The notes under the pieces were generated by a model, which was not told the origin of the DNA, ran no database searches, and saw only the letters and a program-made list of their open reading frames with translations. Shown piece after piece: positions 6,942-32,000 of a stretch of DNA of 32,000 bases. The first letter of the stretch is position 1; every line of letters starts with the position of its first letter. The stretch comes from Candidatus Saccharimonadota bacterium (lineage in GTDB: Bacteria > Patescibacteriota > Saccharimonadia > Saccharimonadales > UBA4665), in the NCBI GenBank assembly GCA_003516025.1, contig CP023991.1, positions 973,783-1,005,782 of the forward strand. The letters are read 5' to 3'. A program made the translations under genes and the position numbers.

Positions 6942-7526
6942 TTATTCAGCCAGTAAGGCGGCAACTTCCTGCTTCAGCAGGTTCAATTCGTTGCCGCCGT
7001 TGGTCATATGGGTATCGGCTTTATCGCGGACGGCAGCCATATCAAGAGTAGCGGCGTCACCCGTAGAGTGCATTTCCGCCTGCTCTTCAGCTACAAATTG
7101 CTCATAGGTTTTTTCGTCTTCCCCGGCACGAGCCCGCTCGGCAGCATTAGAGCGGATACGAGTAAAGCGCAGCAGCGGATCAGCGTCAAGCCACCAGACC
7201 TCACCGCCCAGTTCATGTATGCGGTCAACCTCGAATGGATTACGTAAACTGGCGATGGCGACGCCTTTATATCTGCCTTTCGGCTGCTCGTAAAAAATAT
7301 CCATCGCCCGGTCAACCAGCACGCCAAAACCGAACTGTCGGCGCCATGAGGCACTCAGCTCACGCAGGTGCTCACGGTCGATCGGAAAGCCCTGCCGGCG
7401 TAGTTCCGCCCGCAGTACATCAGTTACAGATACGAACAAATAGCCATGCTCTACGGCAAGCGTATGGCCCACGGTGTCCTTACCGGATCCGTTTGTTCCG
7501 GCAATACCAATAATTTTCTTACTCAT
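6942..7526 (-). CDS. P-loop nucleotide/nucleoside kinase-like protein (AAA_17/dNMP-kinase-like)
   Basis: It has a Walker A motif (GIAGTNGSGKDT) at the N-terminus, and its size (194 aa) is typical of small kinases. The specific substrate cannot be determined from the sequence. Confidence 0.65.
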   Translation of the reverse strand: MSKKIIGIAGTNGSGKDTVGHTLAVEHGYLFVSVTDVLRAELRRQGFPIDREHLRELSASWRRQFGFGVLVDRAMDIFYEQPKGRYKGVAIASLRNPFEVDRIHELGGEVWWLDADPLLRFTRIRSNAAERARAGEDEKTYEQFVAEEQAEMHSTGDAATLDMAAVRDKADTHMTNGGNELNLLKQEVAALLAE

Positions 7527-7535
7527 GTCACAGCT

Positions 7536-7541
7536 ATTATA
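7536..7541 (-). promoter_or_regulatory. TATAAT -10 box, 9 nt upstream of the kinase ATG
   Basis: The minus strand reads ccgcTATAATagctgtgacATG, with no SD. Confidence 0.3.
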
Positions 7542-7556
7542 GCGGTAATCAACAGT

Positions 7557-8156
7557 TTAATCGAGTATTCGCGGCCTGAGCAAAACCAGCCGGGTAAAGA
7601 CAACACATATGTGCAGTACAAATATACTCACCAGTAACCATACGACAGACCGCAAAAAGACGTCCGGACCAATCCAGTCGACAAATATCGGCCCTTCAAG
7701 CAGGTGCGCGCCAGGCACAAAGACCATAAACACCAGTCCGGCGAACGCCAGGACACGAAATAATACGCGTTCACCCGCTTCGATCAACCGGCGGTTGCGA
7801 TTCGTGCCGTTCGGCCAGACAAATTCCCGCTGCTCCATACCTTCGCCCAACTCCGTGATAAACTGTGCTATTCCCCGTAAAAACAGGTACACAATCAAAC
7901 CGACAACCGCCCAAAAGGCGCCGACAACCAGAGCAGCCGTACGCCCCGATCCAATGAGTGAGTTCAGGACATCCTCGAGACCGCTTGATAAAAGGCGAGC
8001 AACATTGAAGTCACGCGGAATACGCAAATATTGCTGAATTGCCGGCAGTTGATGAAGCGAAAAGACCAGCCCGGAGAAAAACAGGTACCATACGACGCCG
8101 ATAGCGCTTGGACTAAAGACACTGGCAACTGTTTCTGTTTTAAACTGGTTTCGCAT
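7557..8156 (-). CDS. Hypothetical integral membrane protein (199 aa, about 4 TM helices)
   Basis: The ORF has several hydrophobic segments (VVWYLFFSGLVFSL, ALVVGAFWAVVGLIVYLFL, VLAFAGLVFMVFV, VVWLLVSIFVLHICVVF). Confidence 0.65.
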   Translation of the reverse strand: MRNQFKTETVASVFSPSAIGVVWYLFFSGLVFSLHQLPAIQQYLRIPRDFNVARLLSSGLEDVLNSLIGSGRTAALVVGAFWAVVGLIVYLFLRGIAQFITELGEGMEQREFVWPNGTNRNRRLIEAGERVLFRVLAFAGLVFMVFVPGAHLLEGPIFVDWIGPDVFLRSVVWLLVSIFVLHICVVFTRLVLLRPRILD

Positions 8157-8240
8157 AATTTAGCTTAAGCTTAACAAAAAGCCACGGCAGTACAAAACCG
8201 ACTCGCCTTACTAACGCGCTCAGAAAGCGCCGCCTACTGG

Positions 8241-19744: not shown

Positions 19745-21442
19745 CTACATGGATTCCGGCGCGCCCATGCCGAGCAGGCCCAAACCATCTTTGAGGATAC
19801 CAGCGTATGCTGAAACCAGCGTCAGCCGCTCAGCTTCCTGTTCGCCGCCAATAACGCGGCTGTTCTCATAGAAACGGTTAAACGTCTGTGATAGTTCATA
19901 GAGATAGGTGCAGATATGGTGCGGCAGCATCTCACTGACGGCACTGTCGACTACTTCGGGATATTCGGTTAGCTTACGGACCAGCAGGCGTTCCCACTCG
20001 TTGAAAGCATAGCCGTCCAGCGGCGCGGCAGTGGCCTGCGCCGCCTTCGCCAGAATTGAGCGGGCACGAGTGTGAGCATACTGCAAATACGGACCGCTAT
20101 TTCCCTGCAGGCTAACTGACTCTTCCGGGTCATAAATAATGTCACCTCCCAGGCGCTGCTTAAGAAAGGCGTATTTGACCGCTCCTAGCACTACCTGGTC
20201 ATCAGTTTTACCGGTAGCCGCCTGGTTCGCTTCCGCGGCGACCATCAGGACGTCCACAGCCCGCAGGATGTTGCCTTTACGGCTGCTCATTTTAACGCCA
20301 CCGGCCAGTTTGACGATACCATGTGTCAGATGGGTACTTTTTTGATACAGTTCAGGCGCGAATTGCTCGATAGCCTTAAGGACCACCGACATATACTGCA
20401 GCTGCTCGTTGCCGGTGATGACGACCGACCGGTCAAAGTGATAATCCTGCCACTTGTGCATGATGAGGCCGACATCCTTGGCCTCATAGGTAGGTATTCC
20501 CTGGCTGTTTATAAACACCCGGGTGTGCAAACCAAATTGTTCCGCCTTAAATACAGTGGCGCCGTCTGATTCTTCGAAAACGGAACCGATGTGTTGCTTG
20601 ACGGTTTGCAGTCCGAGATCGGCGACCTTGCTTTCCGGATAGTATTTTTCAAAAGCCGTACCAATTCGGGCATAAAAGTCGTCAAAGTACTCATAACTCC
20701 AGTCGCGGCATTGCCAATAAATTCGAGCCAGCGGAGACTCATGGTCGTCATTGGTATGAAAGGCATACACCTGCTTATTGAGCTCGATCATTTCCACTTT
20801 AGCAGCCTCGTCATCATCATAGGCATTATTGCCTTTTACGTAGCAGCCGGCCATCCATTCCGCTCGCTTATCCTGATCAATTTCTTCTAACTTTTCCGGA
20901 TACACGCCACCGAGTTCACCGATGATAGCCCACAGCGTCTTGCCGACGTGCATGCCGACATCTCCACCGAAGTTTACCCGGTGTACCTGGCCCCCGGCGG
21001 CCGCGAACAGGTTGGAAATCGCGTCGCCAACCACACTGGTATATAAATGTCCGGCGTGCAGGACTTTAAAAGGATTGGGGTCGGAGTATTCCGTAACAAT
21101 TACCTGGTCTTTATAGCGGTCAGAGTGTCCGTATGGTCGAGTAGCGTCGAGTATACCGGCCAGTTCGGCGGCAAGCACGGCGTCTGTCAGCCGAAAATTA
21201 ATGAAACCAGGGCCGGCGACGGTCGCCTCCGAAACGGTCTCAGACAAATTGGTACGGATTTGGGCAGCCAGTTGCTCGGCGATTTCACGCGGATTGCGGC
21301 CAGCCTGTTTGGCGAACTGCAGTGCCACATTAGTAGCAAAGTCACCGAATTGTTCATCGGGCCGGGTTAGCTCAACGGCTACATCAAGACCAAGTACGTC
21401 TTTGATCACCTGCGACAGGTTTTGTTCAAGTTCATGTTTCAC
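19745..21442 (-). CDS. argS: Arginine--tRNA ligase
   Basis: The 565-aa product has a class I HIGH-type motif (LHAGHLY), a KMSSRKG (KMSKS-like) motif and a C-terminal DALR anticodon-binding region. It uses a GTG start. Confidence 0.95.
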   Translation of the reverse strand: MKHELEQNLSQVIKDVLGLDVAVELTRPDEQFGDFATNVALQFAKQAGRNPREIAEQLAAQIRTNLSETVSEATVAGPGFINFRLTDAVLAAELAGILDATRPYGHSDRYKDQVIVTEYSDPNPFKVLHAGHLYTSVVGDAISNLFAAAGGQVHRVNFGGDVGMHVGKTLWAIIGELGGVYPEKLEEIDQDKRAEWMAGCYVKGNNAYDDDEAAKVEMIELNKQVYAFHTNDDHESPLARIYWQCRDWSYEYFDDFYARIGTAFEKYYPESKVADLGLQTVKQHIGSVFEESDGATVFKAEQFGLHTRVFINSQGIPTYEAKDVGLIMHKWQDYHFDRSVVITGNEQLQYMSVVLKAIEQFAPELYQKSTHLTHGIVKLAGGVKMSSRKGNILRAVDVLMVAAEANQAATGKTDDQVVLGAVKYAFLKQRLGGDIIYDPEESVSLQGNSGPYLQYAHTRARSILAKAAQATAAPLDGYAFNEWERLLVRKLTEYPEVVDSAVSEMLPHHICTYLYELSQTFNRFYENSRVIGGEQEAERLTLVSAYAGILKDGLGLLGMGAPESM

Positions 21443-21449
21443 TGCCTAC

Positions 21450-21458
21450 AGTATAACA
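21450..21458 (-). promoter_or_regulatory. Extended -10 box TGTTATACT, 7 nt upstream of the argS GTG start
   Basis: The minus strand reads ctcTGTTATACTgtaggcaGTG, with no SD. Confidence 0.4.
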
Positions 21459-21481
21459 GAGGCCGATACCCGTATCGAGCC

Positions 21482-22159
21482 TTACGGCCTGGGTGGCATG
21501 CGCAGCGTCCGGACGACGTTATACATTACCAGATACATTGACGTGAGAAGAATGAAGAAAACGCTCGTCGTCAGCATCATACGGGGGTACGACCAGGGAC
21601 TGATTAGTCGGTTAGAGACATCGAACAGCACGCCGGCCGGGTCGAGTACCACATCCCAAGTGTTCCATCGCAGGTACCGGCCCAAATAAATCGCGAAGCT
21701 GCATGCCAGCAGTATGGCGGCCAGCGTCAGGCGCGTTTGCAGCGAATTGAGACGACGGCGCAGTTCGGTATGCATCAGATATAAACTGATATAACCGAGA
21801 ATTAGTCCGTTCAACACAAATGATGTGATCATAACGGCGACGTATAGTATCTCGTTATCCGGCACATCCTGCAGATGGATATAATCTGTGACGATATAGA
21901 AACTGTTAGGCAGAAAAACCAGCCACAGAACAGTCGCTGCCACGCCCTGCCAACCCGACCAGGGCCGGTGGCGCAGCAGCCGAAGCAACAAACGCGCCAA
22001 CAACAGCGGCAACCAGGCTAGCAGAAGATTGCCGATAAGATAGGTGTAGGTACTGCCAAATCCCCTCGTAATACCGCCAGCATACAGGCCAACACTAACG
22101 AGACTGGAGAATATTAGCGTGCCGCTCAGATATGGCCATTCACGTTTTACGTCAACCAT
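21482..22159 (-). CDS. DUF1361-family integral membrane protein
   Basis: It has multiple TM helices and the motif LPNSFYIVTDYIHL, which I recall as the DUF1361 signature (PNApYilTDl.Hl). Confidence 0.7.
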   Translation of the reverse strand: MVDVKREWPYLSGTLIFSSLVSVGLYAGGITRGFGSTYTYLIGNLLLAWLPLLLARLLLRLLRHRPWSGWQGVAATVLWLVFLPNSFYIVTDYIHLQDVPDNEILYVAVMITSFVLNGLILGYISLYLMHTELRRRLNSLQTRLTLAAILLACSFAIYLGRYLRWNTWDVVLDPAGVLFDVSNRLISPWSYPRMMLTTSVFFILLTSMYLVMYNVVRTLRMPPRP

Positions 22160-22167
22160 TACTGCCT

Positions 22168-22176
22168 ATTATAGCA
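22168..22176 (-). promoter_or_regulatory. Extended -10 box TGCTATAAT, 8 nt upstream of the DUF1361 gene ATG
   Basis: The minus strand reads ttTGCTATAATaggcagtaATG, with no SD. Confidence 0.45.
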
Positions 22177-22178
22177 AA

Positions 22179-23210
22179 TTAGGCGTTCAATTCGGCCTTG
22201 AGGCGCTCTACGAGCTCAACCGGAGCTGGATTAAGGCCGTTAAGCAACGCCAGGTATAACGTGACGAAATCGCCGTAGTTTGAGGCCCACAACAATTGCC
22301 GTAAGATCGTATCACCTGGAGGAGTTACCACATTTGGGCTTGGACGGCGGCCGGAAAGCAAACGCTCACTGATCTCAAACCGCTTCTGAACCCGTTCGTG
22401 CTCAAGGTTGCTGCGGATTTCCACTACCGCGTACGGCTTATCGACCGGATGACTGCTCCATCCGATAAACTCGTTGTGGTTAAACTCGGGATACTGATTG
22501 ACCCAAGCGACATTCTTGGCGTTCTCATTGCAGCAGATTTTCCATTTATTAGCCGCCGGAAACATCTTAGGACCACTATAAATCACGACCGACCGGCCCA
22601 TCAGTTCCTGGGCCAATTGCTTAGTGGGATTTTGGGCTGTCGCTACCTCGGGCCGCCAATCGGCCGTTTGATCTTTAAGCCAGTCGCCGGTGGCAGCCAG
22701 TTCCACTACACTGCCCTGCGGGATAAGACCTAAAGGCTCCAGCAGCTGCGTGAGGGCTGCCAAGAAGTAAAACGATGACATTCGAGGCTGAATACCACCA
22801 GGAATGAGATACAACGGGAGAGCTTTCGTGCCCGCGTAGTCTGCCAGCTTACCTCCAGCCGTCATCACGACGCTTTTCGCGCCACGGGCCTCAGCGTCGT
22901 GAAGCGCCGACAGAGTTTCTTCGGTATTCCCGGAGTAACTTGATGATATAACCAGGCTGTGCGGACCAACATAGGCTGGAAGATTATAATCTCGCACTAC
23001 CTCAAGTGGCACGCTGGTTCGCGGCCATGAATTCAAATACAGTGCCGGCCAGGCTGAACCGCCCATACCGGCTACTACGATATTGTGAATTTCACCAAAC
23101 TCAGGCAGTTGAACATCAAAAGTGTACTGGAGTTGTTGCCATTGCTTCTCGGCGATTCCCAAGGTATCTTCAGCGTCACGGTCATGAATCATTTTTAAAT
23201 CGTCCAACAT
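22179..23210 (-). CDS. Bifunctional phosphoglucose/phosphomannose isomerase family protein (SIS domain)
   Basis: VVAGMGGSAWPA and SSSYSGNTEETL are SIS motifs. The length from the ATG at 23210 is 343 aa, and that ATG is preceded by GGAGGA. The ORF-track N-terminal extension (to 23522) overlaps the divergent gene and looks non-coding. Confidence 0.82.
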   Translation of the reverse strand: MLDDLKMIHDRDAEDTLGIAEKQWQQLQYTFDVQLPEFGEIHNIVVAGMGGSAWPALYLNSWPRTSVPLEVVRDYNLPAYVGPHSLVISSSYSGNTEETLSALHDAEARGAKSVVMTAGGKLADYAGTKALPLYLIPGGIQPRMSSFYFLAALTQLLEPLGLIPQGSVVELAATGDWLKDQTADWRPEVATAQNPTKQLAQELMGRSVVIYSGPKMFPAANKWKICCNENAKNVAWVNQYPEFNHNEFIGWSSHPVDKPYAVVEIRSNLEHERVQKRFEISERLLSGRRPSPNVVTPPGDTILRQLLWASNYGDFVTLYLALLNGLNPAPVELVERLKAELNA

Positions 23211-23269
23211 ACATCCTCCATCTGAAATTCTCATAAACATAACCGCTACTATTGCGAACGGCTTATTTT

Positions 23270-23278
23270 TGCTATTAT
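23270..23278 (+). promoter_or_regulatory. Extended -10 box TGCTATTAT for the 23326..23820 gene
   Basis: The sequence is ttTGCTATTATatc, followed by a ~47 nt leader ending in the SD GGGGGGA. Confidence 0.4.
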
Positions 23279-23325
23279 ATCTAGTATAAAGCAAAATAGT
23301 TCTAGTTATGTAGGGGGGATACACA

Positions 23326-23820
23326 ATGTTTGGGCACGATAACCAGAGCAACGACGACAATCCGGGACAGATCACTTTACCATCAACCGAGGAGTTAGAT
23401 AAAGACATCCCCGCTACGCCTACGGCTTTTTCGCCGCAGGCAGACATTGAAACACCCGACGACCTTAAAGCCGCCACAGACGTCCTAACGGCTGCCGATG
23501 CAATTGTCGCCGGCGCGAGCACTCACGACACACCGGCTGCGGCCGCAAGCGCGCCAACCGATGTTCCGGCCGACGAATTACTGGACATCAAACAGGACGT
23601 GCTTAAAGCTTTGACGCCACTTGTCGACCAATTAGAACAAAGCCCTGAAGAAAAATTCCGAACAACCATGATGTTAATCCAGGCCTCCGATAACCATAGC
23701 CTCATAAAGACAGCTTACGACGCCGCCCAGGGCATCAGCAGCGAAAAAGAGCGTGCCCAGGCGCTGCTTGATATCGTAAACGAAATCAACTACTTTACGC
23801 AAAATACGCCAAGCGCTTAA
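23326..23820 (+). CDS. Hypothetical acidic protein (164 aa)
   Basis: It has a strong G-rich SD and is followed by a terminator. The N-terminal half is disordered and rich in Asp, Pro, Ala and Thr, and the C-terminal ~70 aa look helical. No domain was recognised. Confidence 0.7.
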   Translation: MFGHDNQSNDDNPGQITLPSTEELDKDIPATPTAFSPQADIETPDDLKAATDVLTAADAIVAGASTHDTPAAAASAPTDVPADELLDIKQDVLKALTPLVDQLEQSPEEKFRTTMMLIQASDNHSLIKTAYDAAQGISSEKERAQALLDIVNEINYFTQNTPSA

Positions 23821-23837
23821 TAACTATATTTCTATAT

Positions 23838-23866
23838 AAAAGTGACTCCGCTCGGGAGTCGCTTTT
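23838..23866. terminator. Bidirectional rho-independent terminator between convergent genes
   Basis: The stem agtgactcc/ggagtcgct (one G-U pair) has a 5-nt loop. It is flanked by an A-run upstream and TTTT downstream, so it could work on both strands. Confidence 0.65.
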
Positions 23867-23883
23867 ATATTATGTGACAAGAA

Positions 23884-24417
23884 CTAGGCCCTGCTGTTAC
23901 GGATGTACCGGCCATGAATGAAAGCACCCGCGATGGTAACAAGGAGGAATGCGGATATCATAGCATTTTCACCGGGGCCAGTGTTTGGCAGATTTCCCGA
24001 AGCGTTCGGAGTAGCTGTAGTTGGTGCGGGAGCAGGAGCTGGCGTTGATGGAGTTGGCGTAGCCGGTTTCGGAGTCGTACTACCGTCGGTTCCACTGTTG
24101 TTATTAGAGCTACCACCCGTGTTGCCGCCACTATTAGTCGTAGGGGCATCATCGCTGCTGCCATTGCCTGACTTATCGTCCTCGTTTTGCTGCTGACTGG
24201 TCGAGTTATTAGAATTGGTATTTGAACTCGCGTTGTCGCTACCGGTAAATCGCTGGATGACCCAAATACCGGCCCAGATGAGCAATCCCAGGATAATGAC
24301 AAAAACGATTATGCGAATAATCCACTTTACCAAGCCGCCGTTGCCTGAGCTGTAATACTGCTGCAGGTCTACTGGTACATCGCTGTTTTCTGATTTCTTA
24401 CGTCCAAATAATGCCAT
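23884..24417 (-). CDS. LPXTG-motif cell-wall-anchored low-complexity protein (sortase substrate)
   Basis: The C-terminus has LPNTG, then a hydrophobic segment (AMISAFLLVTIAGAFI), then a basic tail (HGRYIRNSRA). The N-terminus has a TM/signal anchor. The middle is a low-complexity region rich in Ser, Asn, Gly, Thr and Pro. Confidence 0.85.
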   Translation of the reverse strand: MALFGRKKSENSDVPVDLQQYYSSGNGGLVKWIIRIIVFVIILGLLIWAGIWVIQRFTGSDNASSNTNSNNSTSQQQNEDDKSGNGSSDDAPTTNSGGNTGGSSNNNSGTDGSTTPKPATPTPSTPAPAPAPTTATPNASGNLPNTGPGENAMISAFLLVTIAGAFIHGRYIRNSRA

Positions 24418-24424
24418 ACCCTGC

Positions 24425-24452
24425 AGTATACTCTTTTGTGAATATTATGCAA
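24425..24452 (-). promoter_or_regulatory. Promoter TTGCAT-N16-TATACT, with the -10 box 7 nt upstream of the LPXTG protein ATG
   Basis: The minus strand reads TTGCATaatattcacaaaagagTATACTgcagggtATG. Confidence 0.45.
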
Positions 24453-24495
24453 TAATAAACAGTTTGTCGCTACTATGGTTATGCTTCTAAATCTG

Positions 24496-24530
24496 GAATA
24501 AAAATAACCCCGAGTTGCCTCGGGGTTATT
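24496..24530 (-). terminator. Rho-independent terminator of groES-groEL
   Basis: A 12-bp perfect stem (24503-24514 pairs with 24519-24530) has a TTGC loop. On the minus strand it is followed by TTTATTC. Confidence 0.8.
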
Positions 24531-24549
24531 TCGCCACAAAAGCGTGGTT

Positions 24550-26196
24550 TTACATCATGCCACCCATACCGCCCATATCAGGGCCGGCTGGTGCTGCCTT
24601 TTCTGGAACTTCAACGACCAAGGCACCCATAGTCATGGCCGTGCCGGCAATTGAAGTCGCGTTCTGTAATGCTTCTTTGGTAACACGGGCTGGATCAACC
24701 ACACCGGCCGCCTTTAGGTCAACCAGCTTGGTTGGATCGTTAACATTAACACCCTGCCCTGCTTTGGCTTTCTTAACCTGCGGCAACCACTCGTCAGCGT
24801 TCAAGCCGGCATTGGTCATAAGGATGCGGAATGGCATTTCGAGGGCGCGTTGCAGCAGTTGGCGGCCAGCCGTGACCGTCGCGTCGTCAGTGGCGTTCGT
24901 TTTAATAGTGCTCACGAGGTTAACAAGCGTAACGCCGCCGCCAGGTACGATACCTTCGTCGAGAGCAGCCTTAACAGCAGCGACTGCGTCGTCAACACGG
25001 AATTTCTTTTCTTCGATTTCAGTTTCAGTAGCGCCACCAACCTTGATGACAGCCACCTTACCGCTGAGTGAAGCGCGGCGCTTTTCGAGGTTTTCTTTAT
25101 CATATTCGCTGGTTGCAGCCTGGATCTGGGCATTGATCTGGTCGATCCGGGCGCTGACTTCGGTAACCTGGCCGGCGCCTTCGATAATAGTCGTTTCATC
25201 TTTGGTGACAATAACGCGGCGAGCCGAGCCTACCATATCGAGTTCAGCGTTTTCAAAAGTGTAACCCTGGTCTTCGGTAATCACCGTAGCGCCGGTAAGG
25301 ATGGCGATGTCGTTCAGGATGTCTTTACGGCGATCACCAAATGACGGAGCTTTGATGGCAACAGTATTAAAGACGCCTTTCAGGCGGTTCAGTACCAGAG
25401 TACCGAGCGCTTCACCTTCAACGTCTTCTGCGATCAGGACGAGGTCTTTCTTACCAGCCTGTGCCAATTTTTCCAATAGCGGCAGGAATTCCTGGACGCT
25501 GGAAATTTTTTTATCGGTAATAACAATAGCTGGCTTGTCGTAGGTAGCTTCCATGCGGGCGGTGTCAGTGACCATGTAGGGACTGACGAAGCCGCGGTCA
25601 AAGGTAAAGCCTTCGACGACTTCGCTCTCCAGGTTAAGACCCTGGCCTTCTTCTACGGTAACCACGCCGTCTTTACCGACTTTATCAATAACGTTAGCGA
25701 TTAGTTCACCAATCTGGGCGTCACCGGCAGAAATAGTGGCGACTTCGGCCACGCGGGTCTTATTACCCTTAATGTCTTCGGCAAGTGTGTTAAGCTTTGC
25801 GATAACATCGCTGGCAGCCGCTTCCAGGCCCTTGCGGAGGAGCATTGGGTTATGGCCGGCGGCAATAAGCTTATTAGCCTCGTTGAGGATGTTATATGTC
25901 AGGACAGTAACAGTAGTCGTACCATCACCGGCAACATCGTTCATCTTGCTGGCGGCCTGCTTGATCAGCTCGGCGCCGACTTTATAGCCAAGCGTTTCAT
26001 CGTCAACATCAGCGATGTCGACACCTTTAGCCACGGTTACGCCGTCGTGGGTAACGGTTGGCGCGCCGTAACTCTTGGAAATAACCACGTTGCGGCCTTT
26101 AGGACCCATTGTAGTTTTCACTGCATCATATAAAATTTGTGCCCCAGCCAGTACGCGGCGGCGCGCATCATCATCATAAAAAACTTTTTTAGCCAT
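24550..26196 (-). CDS. groEL: Chaperonin GroEL (60 kDa)
   Basis: The 548-aa product has the canonical AAVEEGIVPGGG-type motif (here DEGIVPGGGV) and the GGM-repeat C-terminus (GGMGGMM). Confidence 0.98.
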   Translation of the reverse strand: MAKKVFYDDDARRRVLAGAQILYDAVKTTMGPKGRNVVISKSYGAPTVTHDGVTVAKGVDIADVDDETLGYKVGAELIKQAASKMNDVAGDGTTTVTVLTYNILNEANKLIAAGHNPMLLRKGLEAAASDVIAKLNTLAEDIKGNKTRVAEVATISAGDAQIGELIANVIDKVGKDGVVTVEEGQGLNLESEVVEGFTFDRGFVSPYMVTDTARMEATYDKPAIVITDKKISSVQEFLPLLEKLAQAGKKDLVLIAEDVEGEALGTLVLNRLKGVFNTVAIKAPSFGDRRKDILNDIAILTGATVITEDQGYTFENAELDMVGSARRVIVTKDETTIIEGAGQVTEVSARIDQINAQIQAATSEYDKENLEKRRASLSGKVAVIKVGGATETEIEEKKFRVDDAVAAVKAALDEGIVPGGGVTLVNLVSTIKTNATDDATVTAGRQLLQRALEMPFRILMTNAGLNADEWLPQVKKAKAGQGVNVNDPTKLVDLKAAGVVDPARVTKEALQNATSIAGTAMTMGALVVEVPEKAAPAGPDMGGMGGMM

Positions 26197-26217
26197 GTTT
26201 CTCTCCCCTACTTACGG

Positions 26218-26484
26218 TTATTTGACGGTCGCGAGAACGTCTTCTTGTTTAACTAAAATGTACTCATCTTTACCGACTTTGACCGTGGTCTCACTGTAAC
26301 CCTTATAAATAATCCGGTCATCGACTTTAACATCTTTGACATCAGGGCCGACAGCTACAACTTTAACCGTTTTTGGCTTTTCCTTGGCGTTATCTGGCAA
26401 GTACAGACCGCTGGCAGTCTTACTTTCTGCTTCTTCGGCTTGGGCGACTACATAGTCAGCAAGCGGGTGAATAGGTGCACTCAT
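26218..26484 (-). CDS. groES: Co-chaperonin GroES
   Basis: The 88-aa product has the GroES pattern PL.D.V......E...T.SG..LP and sits immediately upstream of groEL. An SD (AAGAGGAG) lies upstream. Confidence 0.95.
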   Translation of the reverse strand: MSAPIHPLADYVVAQAEEAESKTASGLYLPDNAKEKPKTVKVVAVGPDVKDVKVDDRIIYKGYSETTVKVGKDEYILVKQEDVLATVK

Positions 26485-26514
26485 AGTAATACTCCTCTTT
26501 TACGTATTTGTACG

Positions 26515-26541
26515 TTAGCACTTAAGGCTTGAGAGTGCTAA
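26515..26541 (-). promoter_or_regulatory. CIRCE element (HrcA operator) TTAGCACTT-N9-GAGTGCTAA
   Basis: It matches the CIRCE consensus TTAGCACTC-N9-GAGTGCTAA at 17 of 18 arm positions. It lies between the predicted promoter and the groES SD. Confidence 0.9.
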
Positions 26542-26552
26542 CTCATGCACTC

Positions 26553-26581
26553 ATAATAATAAAGGCTTACCTTAGCGTCAA
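26553..26581 (-). promoter_or_regulatory. Promoter TTGACG-N17-TATTAT for groES-groEL
   Basis: The minus strand reads TTGACGctaaggtaagcctttatTATTAT, directly upstream of CIRCE. Confidence 0.6.
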
Positions 26582-26584
26582 TAG

Positions 26585-27052
26585 TCAGAGGATCTTTGTT
26601 ATGGGCACCAGTTGATAGGTAAACAGTTTATGGTCCAGACCGGTAACTGACAGGTCCTGTCGTTGCTCGAGAAATCTTTGATACGTTTCTTGGTCAACTT
26701 TTACGCTGTTATCTTCATCCGGGAAGCCAATAACAAAGAACGCGTCATCTTCTTCGGTAGCCGCGACTGGATTCTGAAAATCCAGATCTACGACAGGCAG
26801 TGACAGCCACAAAGTTTCGCTATTGCCACTAAGCAGCTGTTCGTAGTCGGTAGTCAAGGCAATTGTAGCCAACGGCCGGGGGAACTGTTCATATTGTCCG
26901 ACCCTGAAAAACAAGTAATCGTTTTGGTCTGCCACCACTTTCTTTTCCTGCTCTACTGCTTCACGCAGCCGGTCGCGCAGTGAAAGTAAAGCCATCTCAA
27001 ACTGTACGTCCGGTTCGTGTTCTTTCGACATGGCGTTGGATTCAGCTGTCAT
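26585..27052 (-). CDS. Hypothetical acidic protein (155 aa from the ATG at 27052)
   Basis: The ORF has host-like composition. I chose the ATG at 27052 (MTAESNA...) because the extended -10 box lies 8 nt upstream. The ORF track starts at 27070, inside that box. No domain was recognised. Confidence 0.6.
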   Translation of the reverse strand: MTAESNAMSKEHEPDVQFEMALLSLRDRLREAVEQEKKVVADQNDYLFFRVGQYEQFPRPLATIALTTDYEQLLSGNSETLWLSLPVVDLDFQNPVAATEEDDAFFVIGFPDEDNSVKVDQETYQRFLEQRQDLSVTGLDHKLFTYQLVPITKIL

Positions 27053-27060
27053 TTGTTGAC

Positions 27061-27069
27061 ATAGTAACA
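27061..27069 (-). promoter_or_regulatory. Extended -10 box TGTTACTAT, 8 nt upstream of the ATG at 27052
   Basis: The minus strand reads ataTGTTACTATgtcaacaaATG, with no SD. Confidence 0.4.
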
Positions 27070-27075
27070 TATATA

Positions 27076-27104
27076 TTGCAAAAAACTACCTCGTATTTTA
27101 TACT
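27076..27104 (+). promoter_or_regulatory. Promoter TTGCAA-N17-TATACT driving the high-GC ORF
   Basis: The plus strand reads TTGCAAaaaactacctcgtatttTATACT. A 46 nt AT-rich leader follows, with GGAG 8 nt before the ATG at 27151. Confidence 0.55.
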
Positions 27105-27150
27105 GCAATGGTCCTGTTCTGTTTCAAACGTTCCTTTTGGAGAAACGTTT

Positions 27151-27603
27151 ATGTCTGATCAGCAGCATGGCTCCAACCCGCACAGCTTCGGAAAGCTGAC
27201 CGGCAGCGACCTCAACAAGGAGAAGACCAAGCTCCGCCTGTTCTTCGAGTTCCCGCCCAGCCACCTGGACCCGCGCACCATCCGCACGGCCGTCGCGCAC
27301 ATCCCGCGTGTCGACCCGGGCAGCATCCAGGTCAAGATCAAGGACGACGTCACCGAGCTGTCGCTCGCGGTCTCCATGTCCAACCTGGACGGCAACGGAC
27401 GGCGCCAGGCCAAGAAGCGGGTCGTCACCGACACCCTGCTGGGCCTGCACCGCCTGATCGATAGGACCCGCCCGCACGTCGGCTCATCCACCAAGGAGAC
27501 CGCCGCCGTCACGGTCGGAGCTTCGGCCACCAGGCTCGCCACCCCGCCCAGCAGCCGACCGGCACGGCGCAGCCCGCAGATCGGCCGCCAGCGGCGCAGC
27601 TGA
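27151..27603 (+). CDS. Orphan protein (150 aa) encoded with high-GC (GC3 ~96%) codon usage, foreign to the rest of the window
   Basis: An RBS (GGAG) and a promoter lie upstream. In codons 7-105, 95 of 99 third positions are G/C, GC1 is 61/99 and GC2 is 41/99 (hand count), which is the pattern of genuine coding sequence from a high-GC genome. The last ~45 codons are a low-complexity tail rich in Arg, Pro, Ser and Ala with GC2 above GC1, so the true 3' end is uncertain. No motif was recognised. Confidence 0.6.
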   Translation: MSDQQHGSNPHSFGKLTGSDLNKEKTKLRLFFEFPPSHLDPRTIRTAVAHIPRVDPGSIQVKIKDDVTELSLAVSMSNLDGNGRRQAKKRVVTDTLLGLHRLIDRTRPHVGSSTKETAAVTVGASATRLATPPSSRPARRSPQIGRQRRS

Positions 27604-27687
27604 TCACGGAACACCGGACCGGGGGGGCGCGGCTTGCACCAGTTTCGACATCTTGTCGAGATTGGCCAGCAGGCTGCGCTCCCCCGC

Positions 27688-27771
27688 AGTCCGGGTTTAG
27701 TTTTATTGCAACAGTTATGTTGTTGGCCAACCGCCACCATATCCAAAACACAACAAAACTCAACCCGGACT
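27688..27771. repeat. Long imperfect inverted repeat/hairpin (21-bp stem with 19 pairs, 42-nt loop) spanning the right edge of the high-GC block
   Basis: AGTCCGGGTT (27688-27697) is the perfect reverse complement of AACCCGGACT (27762-27771). Pairing continues inward as AGTTTT/AAAACT and TTG/CAA, with two mismatches. Confidence 0.6.
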
Positions 27772-27783
27772 CTTACTCACTTT

Positions 27784-27792
27784 TGTTACAAT
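27784..27792 (+). promoter_or_regulatory. Extended -10 box TGTTACAAT, 6 nt upstream of the arginase ATG (leaderless-type promoter)
   Basis: The plus strand reads ttTGTTACAATactggtATG, with no SD. The 9-mer is identical to the one upstream of mutM. Confidence 0.45.
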
Positions 27793-27798
27793 ACTGGT

Positions 27799-28740
27799 AT
27801 GTCTATTACCCAAGCCACCCTTATTGGCGTTCCGCTTGATCTTGGCGCCGAGAATCTCGGTGTCGACATCGGCCCTAACGCCTTCCGTTATCAACACCTT
27901 ATCCAAAAGCTTGCCACCGCCGACCTCGAAGTCCACGATGCCGGCAATATAGCCATCGAGGAACGCAAGAACCTGCAACCCGGCAATCCACGGCTGAAGT
28001 ACGCCGCAGAAATTGTCCGCGTTAATGAAGAGTTAGCAGCTAAAACCGAACAGGCTATCCGAGGTGACAATAAAGCCATCGTCCTCGGAGGCGATCACTC
28101 GCTCACCCTCGGTACCGTAAGCGGAGCCTCAGCAGCCGTTGATGGCCAGATTGGCGTTATATATTTTGACGCTCACGGCGACATGAACACCGACGAGACT
28201 ACCATGTCAGGCAACATCCACGGTATGCACCTGGCCAGCCTGATGGGCTTCGGCGCGCCGGAACTGGCCAACGCCTACAAACCAGGCATTAAACTACCGA
28301 AGGAAAACCTGCTGCACATTGGCGCCAGCGATCTCGACCAAGGTGAAATTGACCTTATAGAACGCGAGAACCTGCGGATTTTTAGCCTTTTTGACCTGTT
28401 AACCTCCAACCTCGCGCCCCTGCTCAAAATGATCGACAACCTGGCGGCGCGCGTCCCCCATATCTGGATTAGCCTCGACCTCGACAGTATCGACCGGATT
28501 TACGCGCCTGGTGCCGGCATGCCGAATCCTAAAGGCCTTTCTTACCGTGAGATCGCAACCATTGCTGAATATATTGGTAAAAAGTGTAATGTCGTTGGCG
28601 TGGATGTCGTAGAATACAACCCCCTGCAAGACGAGCACAACAAAACCGCCGAACTCGGCATTGAGCTGATAGCCAAATTCCTTGGCAAAGAATACAGCTG
28701 GTACACCGGCTACATGAGTCGCAACCAGGTCAATGGCTAG
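27799..28740 (+). CDS. rocF: Arginase (ureohydrolase family, RocF-like)
   Basis: MSITQATLIGVPLDLGAENLGVDIGP, VLGGDHSLT, YFDAHGDMNT, SGNIHGMHLA and ISLDLDSID match the manganese-binding motifs, and the layout matches Bacillus-type arginase as I remember it. The start at 27799 aligns with the RocF N-terminus. The ORF-track extension from 27634 crosses the promoter region. Confidence 0.88.
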   Translation: MSITQATLIGVPLDLGAENLGVDIGPNAFRYQHLIQKLATADLEVHDAGNIAIEERKNLQPGNPRLKYAAEIVRVNEELAAKTEQAIRGDNKAIVLGGDHSLTLGTVSGASAAVDGQIGVIYFDAHGDMNTDETTMSGNIHGMHLASLMGFGAPELANAYKPGIKLPKENLLHIGASDLDQGEIDLIERENLRIFSLFDLLTSNLAPLLKMIDNLAARVPHIWISLDLDSIDRIYAPGAGMPNPKGLSYREIATIAEYIGKKCNVVGVDVVEYNPLQDEHNKTAELGIELIAKFLGKEYSWYTGYMSRNQVNG

Positions 28741-28751
28741 GTTGCGCCAAT

Positions 28752-28785
28752 AAAAAAGACCCCGGAATTTATCGGGGTCTTTTTT
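28752..28785. terminator. Bidirectional rho-independent terminator between arginase and the convergent 88-aa gene
   Basis: The sequence is AAAAAAgaccccg-gaatttat-cggggtcTTTTTT, a 7-bp GC-rich stem flanked by an A-run and a T-run. Confidence 0.85.
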
Positions 28786-28798
28786 ACATGCAAATGGT

Positions 28799-29065
28799 TT
28801 AATTCGCGCTATGGGCTCCGCCATTTACGGGGCCGCTCACATCCTGCTGTTCAGCAAACGCCTGCTGCACTTCAGCAGCTGGCGCAATTGAGCCGTCACT
28901 TAAGCCCACTAAGGCATTATGACCAATGTTAGCGGCGCCTTCACGGCGCTTCTGGGCTACTTCGGCGCGCAGTTCCTGCAGCGCCTGAGCATCTGCTTCG
29001 CTGTGTACGGCTGCTTCAAGATCTTCGGCAGCATCTAATTCTTTAAACATTTCTGACTGATTCAT
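28799..29065 (-). CDS. Hypothetical small acidic protein (88 aa)
   Basis: An SD (AAGGAAA) and a predicted promoter lie upstream, and a terminator lies downstream. No domain was recognised. Confidence 0.6.
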   Translation of the reverse strand: MNQSEMFKELDAAEDLEAAVHSEADAQALQELRAEVAQKRREGAANIGHNALVGLSDGSIAPAAEVQQAFAEQQDVSGPVNGGAHSAN

Positions 29066-29102
29066 TTTTGGTTTCCTTTTTTGTTTTGTGAACCTGATTA
29101 GT

Positions 29103-29131
29103 ATGTTACCACATGATTATGTTTTTGTCAA
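29103..29131 (-). promoter_or_regulatory. Promoter TTGACA-N17-TAACAT (TGG extended -10) for the 88-aa gene
   Basis: The minus strand reads TTGACAaaaacataatcatgTGGTAACAT. The -35 overlaps the stop codon of the upstream gene. Confidence 0.45.
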
Positions 29132-29451
29132 TAATGTGATTCAGAATTGTCGATACGATCAACCATGCGCATAGCTGCAAAGCCGCGCAGTTGCGTACGG
29201 GCAAGATTCAGTTCACCCAGAAAAAACTGGTAGTCAGGATCAGTATCAGGGTCAAGACCTTGTGCCTCCAGGGCACGGCGTACAGTAGTGTTCCTGCCTT
29301 CCATTTCCTGCACTTTATGTAACCAGTCTTCGTGTGTCTGCAGCGGTGCATACTCAGGAGTTTCAGCAGTAGGTTGTACATCCGGTTGATACGCCGGAAT
29401 TTCTTCGGAAAAATCAGGTTCTTGGCTACGTTCAAAATATTGTTCTGACAT
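29128..29451 (-). CDS. Hypothetical acidic protein (107 aa from the ATG at 29451)
   Basis: The ORF has host-like composition. I prefer the ATG at 29451 (MSEQYFERS...) because TATAAT lies 9 nt upstream. The ORF track begins at a GTG at 29469, inside that -10 box. Confidence 0.6.
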   Translation of the reverse strand: MSEQYFERSQEPDFSEEIPAYQPDVQPTAETPEYAPLQTHEDWLHKVQEMEGRNTTVRRALEAQGLDPDTDPDYQFFLGELNLARTQLRGFAAMRMVDRIDNSESHY

Positions 29452-29460
29452 ATAGCTCTT

Positions 29461-29489
29461 ATTATACACTACTTATGCTATTTTTGCAA
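29461..29489 (-). promoter_or_regulatory. Internal promoter TTGCAA-N17-TATAAT overlapping the 3' end of the murE-like gene
   Basis: The minus strand reads TTGCAAaaatagcataagtagtgTATAATaagagctatATG. Confidence 0.5.
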
Positions 29490-30818
29490 TAGCTGTAATG
29501 CTTTGCGGGCCGTGCCGATCTCATCCCATGGGTTTTCCCCATTCGCCCGTTCAATAGTCTTTTCGTGACCCTTGCCCAAAAGCAACACAGTATCGCCTGG
29601 CTTGGCGCGCCACATGGCAAATGTAATAGCTTCCGTACGGTCATGTACCAGGAATAAGTTCTGGTCGCGGACCTTACCGGCCATTTCAGCACCCCCGGCA
29701 ATTTGATTCATGATGCCCAGACCGTCAATATCGCGGTCATCTTCTTCGGTAATTATCACTTCGTCAGCATATTCACCGGCCAATTTGCCTTGCACGGCCC
29801 GTTTGGCCTCGTCTCGGCGGCCGGCCGAACCGAATAACACTATCAGTTTACCGGTTTTATGCGCTACTGGTTGTAAATCTTTGAATAACTTTTCGAAACT
29901 GTCAGGCGTATGGGCAAAATCTACAATTACACTAAAGTCCTGGCCCTCGTCGATAGTGGCCATCCGGCCCTCGACCCCCGGCAAAGCGGCGATCCCCTGC
30001 TCTATCTGCTCATCCGTTAATCCTATTGATATCCCCACCGCTGCCGCGGCCATGGCGTTGGATATGTTGAATGTCCCGGGTATATTGATCTTCAGACGCA
30101 AGGTTCGCGCTGCGCCTTTGTTCCAGAACTCAGCGGTAAACGAACTGCCCTGCGGCGACTGTTGAATATCTTTTGCCAAAAATAGGTTGTCACCAATTTC
30201 AGTATCACCCCCTCCTGTCGTGTAATTAACGCTGTTCGGGACGGCATCAATAAAGTACTCTGCGTTTGGGTCATCACCATTGACGATCCCGAGCCGCATG
30301 CCCTGCTTATTCTTAGCTGCCAACTTAAACATCTTTACTTTGGCATCACGGTAGCGCTCGAAAGTCTTGTGATAATCCAAGTGCTCGTGAGTGATATTCG
30401 TCATAACGGCGATGCTGTACGGCACGCCCCACACCCGGTTCTGAGCCAGTGCGTGCGAGGTAGTTTCTAAGACCAGCCACTCAGCCCCCTGCTGCTTCAT
30501 TTCTTTCAGGCGCTTCATAAGTTCCGGCACACCGACAGTGGTCATATGGTGGATCTGAGGATGGATGTCCATACCCACTCCATAGGCCACGGTGGTCATC
30601 AGTCCGACTTTGTAGCCCGCCTCATACAACATGCGATGGATAAGGTAGCTGGTGGTAGTCTTACCGTTCGTACCGGTAACACCTATAATCTTCATGCCGT
30701 GGGCCGGAAAGCCATTGATGGTGTTCAGGACTACCGCTTCTCCAAAGTGGCCGTAAGGCTCAATCATCGGAAACAGTCCAGTTGGTATAACTTTTTTAAC
30801 CGTTTTACGTATATTCAT
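29478..30818 (-). CDS. murE: Mur ligase family protein, MurE-like (UDP-N-acetylmuramoyl-tripeptide synthetase) with a short N-terminal domain
   Basis: The P-loop GVTGTNGKTTT is followed by a central domain (MTNITHEHLDYH) and a C-terminal domain (DFAHTPDS, GSAGRRD). The P-loop begins at aa ~46, versus ~110 in E. coli MurE as I recall it. The amino-acid specificity cannot be called. Confidence 0.8.
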   Translation of the reverse strand: MNIRKTVKKVIPTGLFPMIEPYGHFGEAVVLNTINGFPAHGMKIIGVTGTNGKTTTSYLIHRMLYEAGYKVGLMTTVAYGVGMDIHPQIHHMTTVGVPELMKRLKEMKQQGAEWLVLETTSHALAQNRVWGVPYSIAVMTNITHEHLDYHKTFERYRDAKVKMFKLAAKNKQGMRLGIVNGDDPNAEYFIDAVPNSVNYTTGGGDTEIGDNLFLAKDIQQSPQGSSFTAEFWNKGAARTLRLKINIPGTFNISNAMAAAAVGISIGLTDEQIEQGIAALPGVEGRMATIDEGQDFSVIVDFAHTPDSFEKLFKDLQPVAHKTGKLIVLFGSAGRRDEAKRAVQGKLAGEYADEVIITEEDDRDIDGLGIMNQIAGGAEMAGKVRDQNLFLVHDRTEAITFAMWRAKPGDTVLLLGKGHEKTIERANGENPWDEIGTARKALQLLQK

Positions 30819-30838
30819 ACGTATCAGTATAACTGACG

Positions 30839-31945
30839 CTAGGACAATATCTGACGAACGCGCTCCAGCAGCCGTTTCGTATCGTCGTTGGGCTGTACGG
30901 CCGGAGATGGTGGCTGAGGAACATTCGGACTGGCCGGATCCGGTGCCGGGTCGGGAGTTGCCTGCGCTTCACCGCTGAGACCGGTAATAGCAATTCGACT
31001 CATACTTCGAACGGCAACCGGACGAGCGATCGTTGCAGCCTGCCGCGGTTCCCGTTCCTGCAGTTTTTTAGCTGCCTCGCGGGCCTCCGCAGCCTCACGG
31101 TGGCACCGTAATTTAGTAGCGACATCATGCCTGAAAGCCTGGAATGCGGCAGCGCTGGTGCCGAAATCCTGTCTGATTTTTTGCTGTTCACGTTCAGTCA
31201 GCACCAAGAAACGCTTAGTGGGTTTCGCGCCGTCTAAAGTAAAACCACGATCATTTTTATAGCGTTCACGGTGTTGCGGAGCTAATTCACTGGTGAAATC
31301 AAACGCCAACAGCTGCCGTTCGTGATCACGTACGGCGCGTCCGTCAATACGGCCGTTCTTATCAGTTATTAAATCATCCTGCCTCAGTTCGGCATTAATC
31401 GCTATCCTGGCACGGGCCTGCTTTTTAGCCCGCTCAAGGGTTACCTGGGCTGGCTCGTTTAACTGTCGGCGATGGCGGCGCACGAACGCCCGGCCGTCCC
31501 GGCTTAAACCGTCCAAACCGGTGGCTGTGGCAACATTTTTATAATCAGCAAGGTCGGCCGGTTCAATCCGCCACCACGACTTATCGGTTCGCCGGATAAT
31601 TTCCTTCACGAGGTCAGCGTCAAGTTCACGCTTGTTCTGGTCTTTAAATATATCAACCTTTTTCCTGCCCTCATCGGTATCGACCATGCGGGTACCATGG
31701 GTTACCTTGCCTAAGACATCATGTTGTAAGGCCTGTAACTCAGCCACTGATGTCGGCGGATTTTCCAATAATGACTCGTGGGCGTCAACTAAAAACTGGT
31801 TCGGAGCGCCTTGCTGTTCCTGATGCTCGGCGGCGGCCGTGCCGGAAGCCGGCTCCCAGCCTACAGGCATACTGTCCTGCAGCGTGGTGTCGTATCGGTC
31901 TAAAGATGTGTCGCGCGGTTGGCGCCGTCGGTCTCCGGGATGCAT
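30839..31945 (-). CDS. Hypothetical highly charged protein (368 aa)
   Basis: It is a long ORF with a strong upstream promoter. The product is rich in Arg, Glu, Asp and Lys, has no TM helix and has a Pro-rich C-terminal segment. No domain was recognised. Confidence 0.65.
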   Translation of the reverse strand: MHPGDRRRQPRDTSLDRYDTTLQDSMPVGWEPASGTAAAEHQEQQGAPNQFLVDAHESLLENPPTSVAELQALQHDVLGKVTHGTRMVDTDEGRKKVDIFKDQNKRELDADLVKEIIRRTDKSWWRIEPADLADYKNVATATGLDGLSRDGRAFVRRHRRQLNEPAQVTLERAKKQARARIAINAELRQDDLITDKNGRIDGRAVRDHERQLLAFDFTSELAPQHRERYKNDRGFTLDGAKPTKRFLVLTEREQQKIRQDFGTSAAAFQAFRHDVATKLRCHREAAEAREAAKKLQEREPRQAATIARPVAVRSMSRIAITGLSGEAQATPDPAPDPASPNVPQPPSPAVQPNDDTKRLLERVRQILS

Positions 31946-31968
31946 AGTATACCTACTTAATTATCCAC

Positions 31969-31997
31969 ATTATACTATAAAGTAACCATTAATGCAA
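31969..31997 (-). promoter_or_regulatory. Promoter TTGCAT-N17-TATAAT for the 368-aa gene and the murE-like operon
   Basis: The minus strand reads TTGCATtaatggttactttatagTATAAT, followed by a 23 nt leader. Confidence 0.55.
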
Positions 31998-32000
31998 TAC

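Follow-up and report, generated by a model that had tools for sequence, protein, structure and literature searches.

Saccharibacteria live as obligate epibionts and have genomes of about 1 Mb; small proteins that are strain-specific are prime candidates for a part in host interaction or in conflict with phages. Several described systems resemble the element reported here. An islet acquired by horizontal gene transfer (HGT) around a deviant orphan gene shows sharply bounded deviant G+C, codons unlike those of its neighbours, an orphan product and absence from some close relatives. An integron cassette carries a small, often orphan open reading frame (ORF) followed by an imperfect inverted repeat, with a resident promoter upstream; orphan ORFs are typical of environmental integron cassettes. 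Diversity-generating retroelements (DGRs) are common in candidate phyla radiation (CPR) bacteria, and in their targets a variable coding region is directly followed by a GC-rich inverted repeat. Stable GC-rich stems just past a stop codon are also seen in intrinsic terminators and RNase III sites. Likenesses to all of these are found in a GC-rich block at 27151-27697 of a 32,000-nt stretch of a Candidatus Saccharimonadota genome (the window; GenBank assembly GCA_003516025.1, contig CP023991.1, positions 973,783 to 1,005,782 of the forward strand), where a 150-aa orphan ORF (ORF150) is followed by two hairpins and then by an arginase gene. With a probability of about 60%, we read this block as the genome's own allele of a resident, lineage-specific, hypervariable small-protein cassette that occupies one chromosomal slot.

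The block was delimited by its composition. G+C amounts to 356 of 517 nt (68.9%) at 27181-27697 and drops to 39% at 27701-27800, in a window of 49.8% GC overall; 500-nt windows outside the block have a mean of 0.495 (standard deviation 0.047, maximum 0.568), compared with a block peak of 0.692, and the compositional boundaries are sharp. In the plus-strand frame 27151..27603, G or C occupies 61/99 first (GC1), 41/99 second (GC2) and 95/99 third (GC3) positions of codons 7-105. The GC3 of ORF150 is 0.95 versus 0.43-0.62 in the native genes of the window, with C outnumbering G at third positions, and when the 32 kb were scanned for runs of 40 codons in which one codon phase is at least 90% GC, only 27153-27557 came up. 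An earlier note on this DNA had counted 27181-27697 and codons 7-105 by hand, and recomputation gave exactly its figures (39% rather than its approximate 40% for 27701-27800); its statement that no other gene in the window has such a signature is borne out by the phase scan. Its reading of the composition as a real high-GC coding signature holds as far as about 27465, past which GC2 climbs to ~0.83 and the clean signature ends, while the block's final 94 nt (27604-27697) follow the stop codon and are non-coding, containing hairpin 1 together with the first arm of hairpin 2. These data support the block as real coding sequence of anomalous composition. Avoidance of the TA dinucleotide in ORF150 (observed/expected ratio 0.08) was dropped as a signal, since high GC3 and the lack of Tyr account for it.

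The same slot was then compared in relatives, that is, in fetched loci encoding arginase homologues, for which percentages below are arginase identities to the window. The gene order in the window is groEL, groES, a minus-strand acidic 155-aa orphan, the block and arginase. The relatives keep the order groEL, groES, X and arginase, with an X that changes between genomes. Six copies of the unit from five genomes were compared: the window, L080, L089 (partial), L010 and two in L019. L080 (87%) carries a 106-aa plus-strand ORF with a GC3 of 0.81 versus 0.62-0.69 in native genes, and L010 (83%) a 97-aa ORF (ORF97) with a GC3 of 0.96 versus 0.58-0.72. The L089 contig (85%) begins inside the unit and retains the GC-rich 3' end of the ORF and both hairpins. 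In L019 (72%), two tandem cassettes (L019:2658-3900), each composed of an ORF, hairpin 1 and hairpin 2, have ORF GC3 values of 0.78 and 0.60 versus 0.36-0.39 in native genes (arginase 0.36). The ORFs thus range from 97 to 150 aa, and their GC3 exceeds that of the genome by 0.40 in the window, ~0.25 in L010, ~0.15 in L080, and 0.22 and 0.40 in L019. The cassette is absent from L007 and L086/L087 (87-88%), L008/L009 (84%) and L081-L085 (83%).

Comparison of these copies showed that the coding part is hypervariable and that the regulatory and structural flanks are under constraint. Between genomes, the flanking genes are ~76-78% identical at the nucleotide level. No significant similarity between cassette ORFs was detected by Smith-Waterman alignment in any cross-genome pair (z < 1.3), the two tandem ORFs of L019 being the only pair with detectable similarity (z = 3.95). 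The conserved 3' stretch starts 16-25 nt ahead of the stop codon and extends across both hairpins; between the window and L010, 141 nt of it align at 65% identity (E = 1e-9), starting 16 nt ahead of the stop and taking in hairpin 1 together with the first arm of hairpin 2. The CTGATC stop context of ORF150 is also present in L089. Because an analogous cassette with conserved flanks occurs at 72-87% arginase identity, the locus should be older than these lineages, which differ by 13-28% in arginase.

Hairpin 1 (27620..27686) is a near-perfect GC-rich stem-loop that starts 17 nt past the stop codon. The region 27596-27790 folds with a z-score of -9.8 relative to shuffled controls, and a second test of the hairpin region gave z = -7.3. 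Across the five complete copies, the 13 base-proximal positions of hairpin 1 are paired in 64/64 cells. When the window, L089 and L010 were compared, 88% of cells paired versus 28-48% in slid controls, with 7 compensatory pairs versus 0-1. The sequence of hairpin 1 varies between genomes while its pairing stays, and MAFFT could not align the stems of distant copies. Hairpin 2 (27688..27771) is an inverted repeat whose 21-nt arms, 27688-27708 (AGTCCGGGTTTAGTTTTATTG) and 27751-27771 (CAACAAAACTCAACCCGGACT), are 90% complementary and enclose a 42-nt variable interior. Its arms, CCGGGTTTAGT... and ...ACTAAACCCGG, were located by regex search of the fetched loci, as were the other hairpin motifs, and are found also in L010, L080, L089 and L019 (twice in L019), around interiors of ~40-150 nt. 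The L019 copies show compensatory changes; in the distal cassette, the variant arms GGGGTTTGGTT and AACCAAACCCC still pair through them. A two-hairpin fold of the same shape is obtained for each of the five complete copies and for L089.

Searches for the hairpins elsewhere were negative. Neither the window nor L010 gave a match to Rfam 15 at gathering thresholds, and at E <= 1 only chance-level matches to miRNA hairpins were obtained. Viral collections yielded nothing, or five chance matches inside coding sequence. A pattern scan of metagenome contigs found none, a weak negative, as the source contig is itself absent from that collection, which does not hold the sample. No second copy of any part of the block is present in the window and the 5.6 kb beyond it, and all assemblies (JGI, Logan) show the hairpin 2 segment in one orientation. 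A minus-strand coding fragment considered at 27605-27690 was dropped, as it corresponds to the 3' arm region of hairpin 1.

To describe the product, ORF150 (27151..27603, plus strand), recognised by its GC periodicity, was modelled with AlphaFold2 from the single sequence. The model has a pLDDT (predicted local distance difference test score) of 80-87 across a core of residues 13-106 (~27187-27468), with strands at 13-20, 25-33, 60-64 and 67-75 and helices at 41-49 and 81-106, which form two beta hairpins, one short helix and a long C-terminal one. Disorder is predicted for residues 108-150, and this tail (~27469-27600) is rich in Arg, Ser, Pro and Ala; the protein contains no Cys. The model suggests that the product of ORF150 is a real protein, small, of alpha/beta type and ending in a basic disordered tail. 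Homologues were limited to the self-match both in a word-indexed search of 5.8 billion protein clusters and when 1.84 billion representatives were scanned exhaustively with HMMER. ORF150 had zero matches in Pfam, PHROGs, PADLOC and NCBIfam, among viral contigs and among PDB sequences, and neither it nor the block had any in plasmids and phages by blastn and tblastn. A Foldseek search of the model against PDB and BFVD returned only generic two-layer alpha/beta matches (Rpb11/RpoL, Pcc1, permuted S6, YbjN), with PDB E values of at least 0.01, a best BFVD E value of 1.1e-3 at a query-normalised template modelling (TM) score of 0.30, and query-normalised TM scores of at most 0.58.

The L010 counterpart ORF97 was likewise a singleton in the word-indexed search of 5.8 billion protein clusters. 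Modelled by AlphaFold2 without an alignment, it gave a pLDDT of 81.8 and a beta-alpha-beta-beta arrangement with a long helix, and its weak fold matches overlap with those of ORF150. A 26-nt match between the window and L010 ORFs covers a common IKDD motif (pairwise E = 0.004), and in every allele a basic disordered Arg/Ser/Pro-rich tail follows the long helix. The MSD start shared by the window and L080 ORFs, the IKDD match and the basic tail are faint signs of common descent among the ORFs.

Several other candidate features overlap ORF150. An antisense 117-aa ORF (27124..27477, minus strand) shares third-codon positions with the plus-strand ORF, and its codon phases imply GC1 < GC2; it was rejected as a gene and regarded as a by-product of the high GC3. 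Some gene-calling pipelines picked this antisense ORF over the plus-strand one, so the block can be traced through it on other contigs, and it is recorded on the 1,005,782-bp contig (NCBI, Logan, ENA) and on a 1,005,352-bp contig (JGI/IMG). An 11-nt inverted repeat at 27156-27166 and 27596-27606 (TGATCAGCAGC / GCAGCTGATCA), placed in codons 2-5 and across the stop, brackets the ORF; as a boundary signal it was dropped, a repeat of this length being expected by chance in the region.

Upstream of ORF150, a consensus scan recovered a sigma-70-like promoter, TTGCAA-N17-TATACT (27076..27104, plus strand), with a 9/12 match. Equivalent sites read from the sequence are TTGCCA-N17-TACACT in L010 and TTGTCC-N17-TACAAT in L080, the 17-nt spacing being common to all three. 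The leader with its GGAG is 71% identical between L080 and L010 over 45 nt ending at the ATG. In the window, minimum free energy and centroid folds place the GGAG Shine-Dalgarno sequence (27139-27142) in a leader hairpin (27126..27150, plus strand) that ends at the start codon and could reflect translational control or chance. The promoter that the earlier note had read by eye is thus the one recovered by the scan, and its description of promoter, leader and ribosome-binding site as of resident type agrees with the same spacing and leader in relatives. The GGAG, the ATG and the lack of Cys are as it described them, and its orphan product without a placeable motif is matched by the empty protein and family-library searches. 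The first six codons, which it saw as host-like, do not require a graft junction, the L080 ORF having the same MSD start and early codons that also end in A or T.

In our favoured reading, the slot is the spacer between the groES-adjacent variable gene and arginase in a clade of Saccharibacteria. The cassette comprises a sigma-70-like promoter with a GGAG leader, a small GC3-rich ORF, hairpin 1, and hairpin 2 ending before the arginase promoter. The promoter would drive the predicted small alpha/beta protein with its basic tail, and the two hairpins would terminate, process or insulate the ORF transcript, arginase being expressed from its own promoter. Between its conserved ends the ORF would evolve, or be exchanged between genomes, very fast. 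The GC3 anomaly would have belonged to the cassette for a long time, maintained through selection or through repeated replacement of alleles, and would not point to a recent transfer from an actinobacterial host.

Several observations weigh against the resident cassette. A GC3 of 0.95 in a genome of 50% GC calls for some force to sustain it, and we found none. The acidic genes adjacent to groES are equally divergent yet have an ordinary GC3 (0.52-0.63), so that hypervariability or recombination alone cannot explain the anomaly. The GC1 and GC2 values and the Arg-rich composition fall within the range of a Streptomyces phage, so a high-GC source of the ORF bodies is possible. The distribution is patchy, with carriers and non-carriers interleaved in the arginase tree, which within one arginase clade calls for several losses or for mobility. 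The ORFs are putative homologues, the idea of one family diverging in place drawing on position, flanks and predicted architecture. Hairpin 1 does not conform to the canonical terminator pattern in the consensus scan, and the assemblies of the window's own genome may share reads.

A single ancient import should have ameliorated by now, given flanking genes only ~76-78% identical. Three candidate causes of the high GC3 were considered. Repeated re-import from a high-GC pool would fit the composition, but not the absent donor or the common ORF ends. A recombination-associated GC bias is undercut by the neighbouring gene, and GC-biased gene conversion at a hotspot was dropped as a sufficient cause, as that equally variable neighbour has normal GC3. 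Selection on mRNA or codon choice would be ad hoc, as groEL and groES show no such bias.

Among the rival explanations, import of the ORF body is possible but unlikely. Here the slot would be resident, and an unsampled high-GC donor (the host actinobacterium, a phage or a plasmid) would recently have supplied the ORF body, replacing an earlier allele by recombination. Such a source would suit the GC3 of 0.95-0.96 with C exceeding G at third positions, the Arg-rich protein, and the dissimilarity of sister-genome ORFs despite conserved flanks; the orphan status would also be typical of small phage genes. A control gene set from Streptomyces phage R4 has a GC1 of 0.66, a GC2 of 0.46 and a GC3 of 0.90, and its mean of GC1 and GC2 is 0.558 +/- 0.036 (minimum 0.49). 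The cassette ORFs (0.51 in the window, 0.495 in L010) lie at the low edge of this range, as well as among native genes (0.46-0.52). Amino-acid composition as proof of native origin was dropped, because the R4 control overlaps. However, neither ORF150 nor ORF97 has a homologue in the 5.8e9 clusters, nor does ORF150 in the 1.84e9 representatives or, by tblastn, in phages and plasmids. The ORF ends common across genomes (the MSD start; the tail and stop context) would not have been brought by a foreign gene, the alleles are alike in size class and predicted architecture, and there is no recombinase in the window. The earlier note had proposed a very recent acquisition from a high-GC donor such as an actinobacterium, with the actinobacterial host as the obvious source if the organism were an epibiotic Saccharibacterium; the data do not bear this out, as no donor or homologue was found and L080, L089, L010 and L019 carry an analogous cassette. 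It had also named a same-place ORF with host-like codons in relatives as evidence against its proposal; a same-place cassette does occur there, with codon usage that is non-host-like as well. Less probable than import of the ORF body is a mobile cassette inserting site-specifically upstream of arginase, with the hairpins or inverted repeat as recombination sites in the manner of an integron, an Xer/dif module, a miniature inverted-repeat transposable element (MITE) or an HUH transposon. It would account for the patchy presence within one arginase clade, the tandem pair in L019 with a hairpin pair to each ORF, the conserved sequence directly 3' of a structured hairpin, and the orphan ORFs reminiscent of environmental integron cassettes. 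Against it, the 32 kb contain no integrase, transposase or HUH gene and only one copy, the site does not vary, the cassettes have promoter-like sites of their own, viral contigs gave no matches, and the hairpin 2 arms have a GTT/AAC polarity that runs opposite to the core sites of attC. An equally speculative reading is an 'expression slot' dedicated to this purpose upstream of arginase, with a conserved promoter and leader on one side and the conserved hairpin pair on the other. Hypervariable GC3-saturated orphan genes would be captured or exchanged in it via the hairpins, as a gene-cassette system of CPR bacteria that lacks a known integrase, the gene pool perhaps being tied to the high-GC world of the actinobacterial hosts and its codons thereby kept GC-rich.

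The remaining rivals question the gene or the sequence itself. It is very improbable that the ORF is an untranslated accident of GC-rich sequence, in a block that would be a non-coding or structural GC-rich element. The lack of homologues, the lack of detectable protein conservation across genomes and the several long ORFs overlapping at the block would fit such an accident, the last because GC-rich DNA is poor in stop codons. They are opposed by the strong 3-base periodicity over ~100 codons (GC2 0.41 vs GC3 0.95), equally strong in L010, by a Shine-Dalgarno sequence and ATG at the right distance, and by the confident single-sequence alpha/beta folds. As RNA, the ORF region shows no excess of structure over shuffled controls (z = -0.4), and the region was rejected as a structured RNA on this basis. 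An assembly chimera, in which foreign high-GC DNA was joined into a Saccharibacteria contig, is scarcely credible. The earlier note had left this option beside recent acquisition, and the sharp compositional boundaries are compatible with it, as is the fact that all records of the exact sequence could stem from one sample. Both junctions are nevertheless spanned at 100% identity, by JGI contig Ga0066648_10000865 over 11,992 nt (window 20009-32000) and by Logan contig SRR6241621_525106 over 5,594 nt (window 26407-32000), and three or four assemblies or assemblers give identical junctions. The right 'junction' lies inside the two-hairpin element, which is contiguous and conserved in four genomes from other samples, and the left junction (leader, ATG and GC-rich ORF) is also reproduced in relatives. 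This recurrence of the junction architecture in other samples is a stronger argument against a chimera than the assemblies of the same genome.

The genes around the block were also examined. The arginase gene (27799-28740, plus strand) matches Pfam PF00491 with E = 1.3e-60, and its closest homologues are annotated as Candidatus Saccharibacteria or Saccharimonadales, in line with the organism that the earlier note had guessed. A -10-like hexamer, TACAAT, was read from the sequence just past hairpin 2 (27788-27793, plus strand), and TACAAT or TAGACT stands at the equivalent place before arginase in L080, L089 and L010. Downstream, a canonical bidirectional intrinsic terminator with an 8-bp stem and T-run (28753-28787; AAAAAAGACCCCG...CGGGGTCTTTTTT) separates arginase from a convergent 88-aa gene. 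On the other side of the block, the divergent acidic 155-aa orphan gene (26585..27052, minus strand) has no family match in Pfam, PHROGs, PADLOC or NCBIfam. Its search against species-representative genomes gave only a spurious Gemmatimonadaceae match, a weak negative, as that collection misses the window's own sequence. The groES-adjacent gene differs from genome to genome, encoding acidic orphans of 213, 214, 339 or 107+ aa in relatives (L010:3620-4261, L080:2589-3233, L008:3883-4902, L007:1-320). Blastp among the proteins of the window, L010, L008/L009 and L007 showed no cross-genome similarity; the L080 protein, which was left out of this comparison, looks like that of L010 by eye. The whole groES-arginase spacer is a variable hotspot. 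The rest of the window encodes housekeeping functions, among them polA, rpoD, dnaG, argS, glycosyltransferases and a Mur ligase, and the 32 kb contain no integrase, transposase, HUH gene, reverse transcriptase or tRNA.

GC3-rich orphan ORFs were also observed at other Saccharibacteria loci. L081, which has no cassette, carries upstream of arginase (L081:2611-3094) a 125-aa Arg-rich minus-strand ORF with a GC3 of 0.83 versus 0.57-0.61 in native genes, and a 12-bp perfect hairpin at 3039-3094; the pair may be a cassette remnant or a different occupant of the slot. L059 (Saccharibacteria, arginase 68%) contains a 69% GC island in a 54% GC locus (L059:7141-8212). Its 285-aa minus-strand orphan ORF (7222-8079; GC1/2/3 of 0.72/0.40/0.95) has three internal ~210-nt repeats and is followed by a hairpin at 7166-7215, and a perfect 14-nt inverted repeat, GCGAAGAGATAGAT (7141-7154 / 8199-8212), brackets the island. 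The ORF and island gave zero matches in phages, plasmids, Pfam, PHROGs, PADLOC and NCBIfam. Stretches with a GC3 of at least 0.9 were further seen at L051:1261-1806 and L052:4453-4854, on Saccharibacteria contigs of 52-54% GC. In the minus-strand ORF of L051 the N-terminus seems to form a membrane helix, and a long perfect hairpin (GAGTGGCCGGGA...TCCCGGCCACTC) comes after the ORF; the minus-strand ORF of L052 runs off the contig end. High-GC3 genes may be recurrent in these genomes.

A single slot thus holds, in five related genomes, an orphan gene that is unrecognisably different in each, GC3-rich, and accompanied by the same promoter and covarying hairpins. If the locus is resident, a strong local anomaly of codon composition can persist for long, and deviant GC3 would then not be an automatic sign of recent transfer, a point of consequence when HGT is inferred in host-associated CPR bacteria. 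If cassettes are exchanged, the slot would give ultra-small bacteria a new means of sampling genes. On either reading, the hairpin pair is a concrete, searchable marker for more such cassettes.

Set against the known systems, the cassette departs on a defining point from HGT islets, integron cassettes, DGR targets and intrinsic terminators. The islet-like traits are accompanied by no donor, and no mobility genes, tRNA or direct repeats are found at the block; instead, relatives with as little as 72% arginase identity have the same slot filled by analogous units whose flanks are conserved, and every copy is GC3-enriched though the synonymous sites of the flanking genes are far diverged. With integron cassettes it shares an inverted repeat of comparable size and an ORF that varies while the structured site is conserved. 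As for the promoterless tandem arrays of integrons, L019 has two cassettes in tandem, and the other genomes have one each, with its own promoter-like site. It differs in the lack of IntI near the block (Pfam scans of the window ORFs and neighbouring genes found housekeeping families only), in having two hairpins rather than one, and in its fixed slot by arginase rather than at attI. The 5' arm of hairpin 2 ends in ...TTTAGTT and the 3' arm begins with AACT..., opposite to the RYYYAAC ... GTTRRRY of attC, and GTTTAGT misses GTTRRRY at position 4. For a DGR target, the 32 kb lack a reverse transcriptase and no template repeat occurs in the window or the 5.6 kb beyond; the whole ORF varies between genomes, rather than adenine-templated positions in a ~100-bp region. 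With regard to a MITE or inverton, a 21-nt inverted repeat bounds a 42-nt segment, in one copy in the 32 kb and in one orientation in all assemblies. Hairpin 1 resembles a terminator or RNase III stem in having a U-rich run (GGGUUUAGUUUU) within a few bases, and its 18-30 bp of stem would suffice in length for RNase III. This stem is far longer than that of the genome's canonical terminator, and the U-rich run begins ~7 nt past it, where 0-2 nt are required, and is itself the 5' arm of the conserved hairpin 2; as the run does not adjoin the stem, the consensus terminator scan does not call hairpin 1. Taken as a strain-variable orphan cassette at a conserved hotspot, the locus is unusual in its persistent GC3 excess and its conserved hairpin pair.

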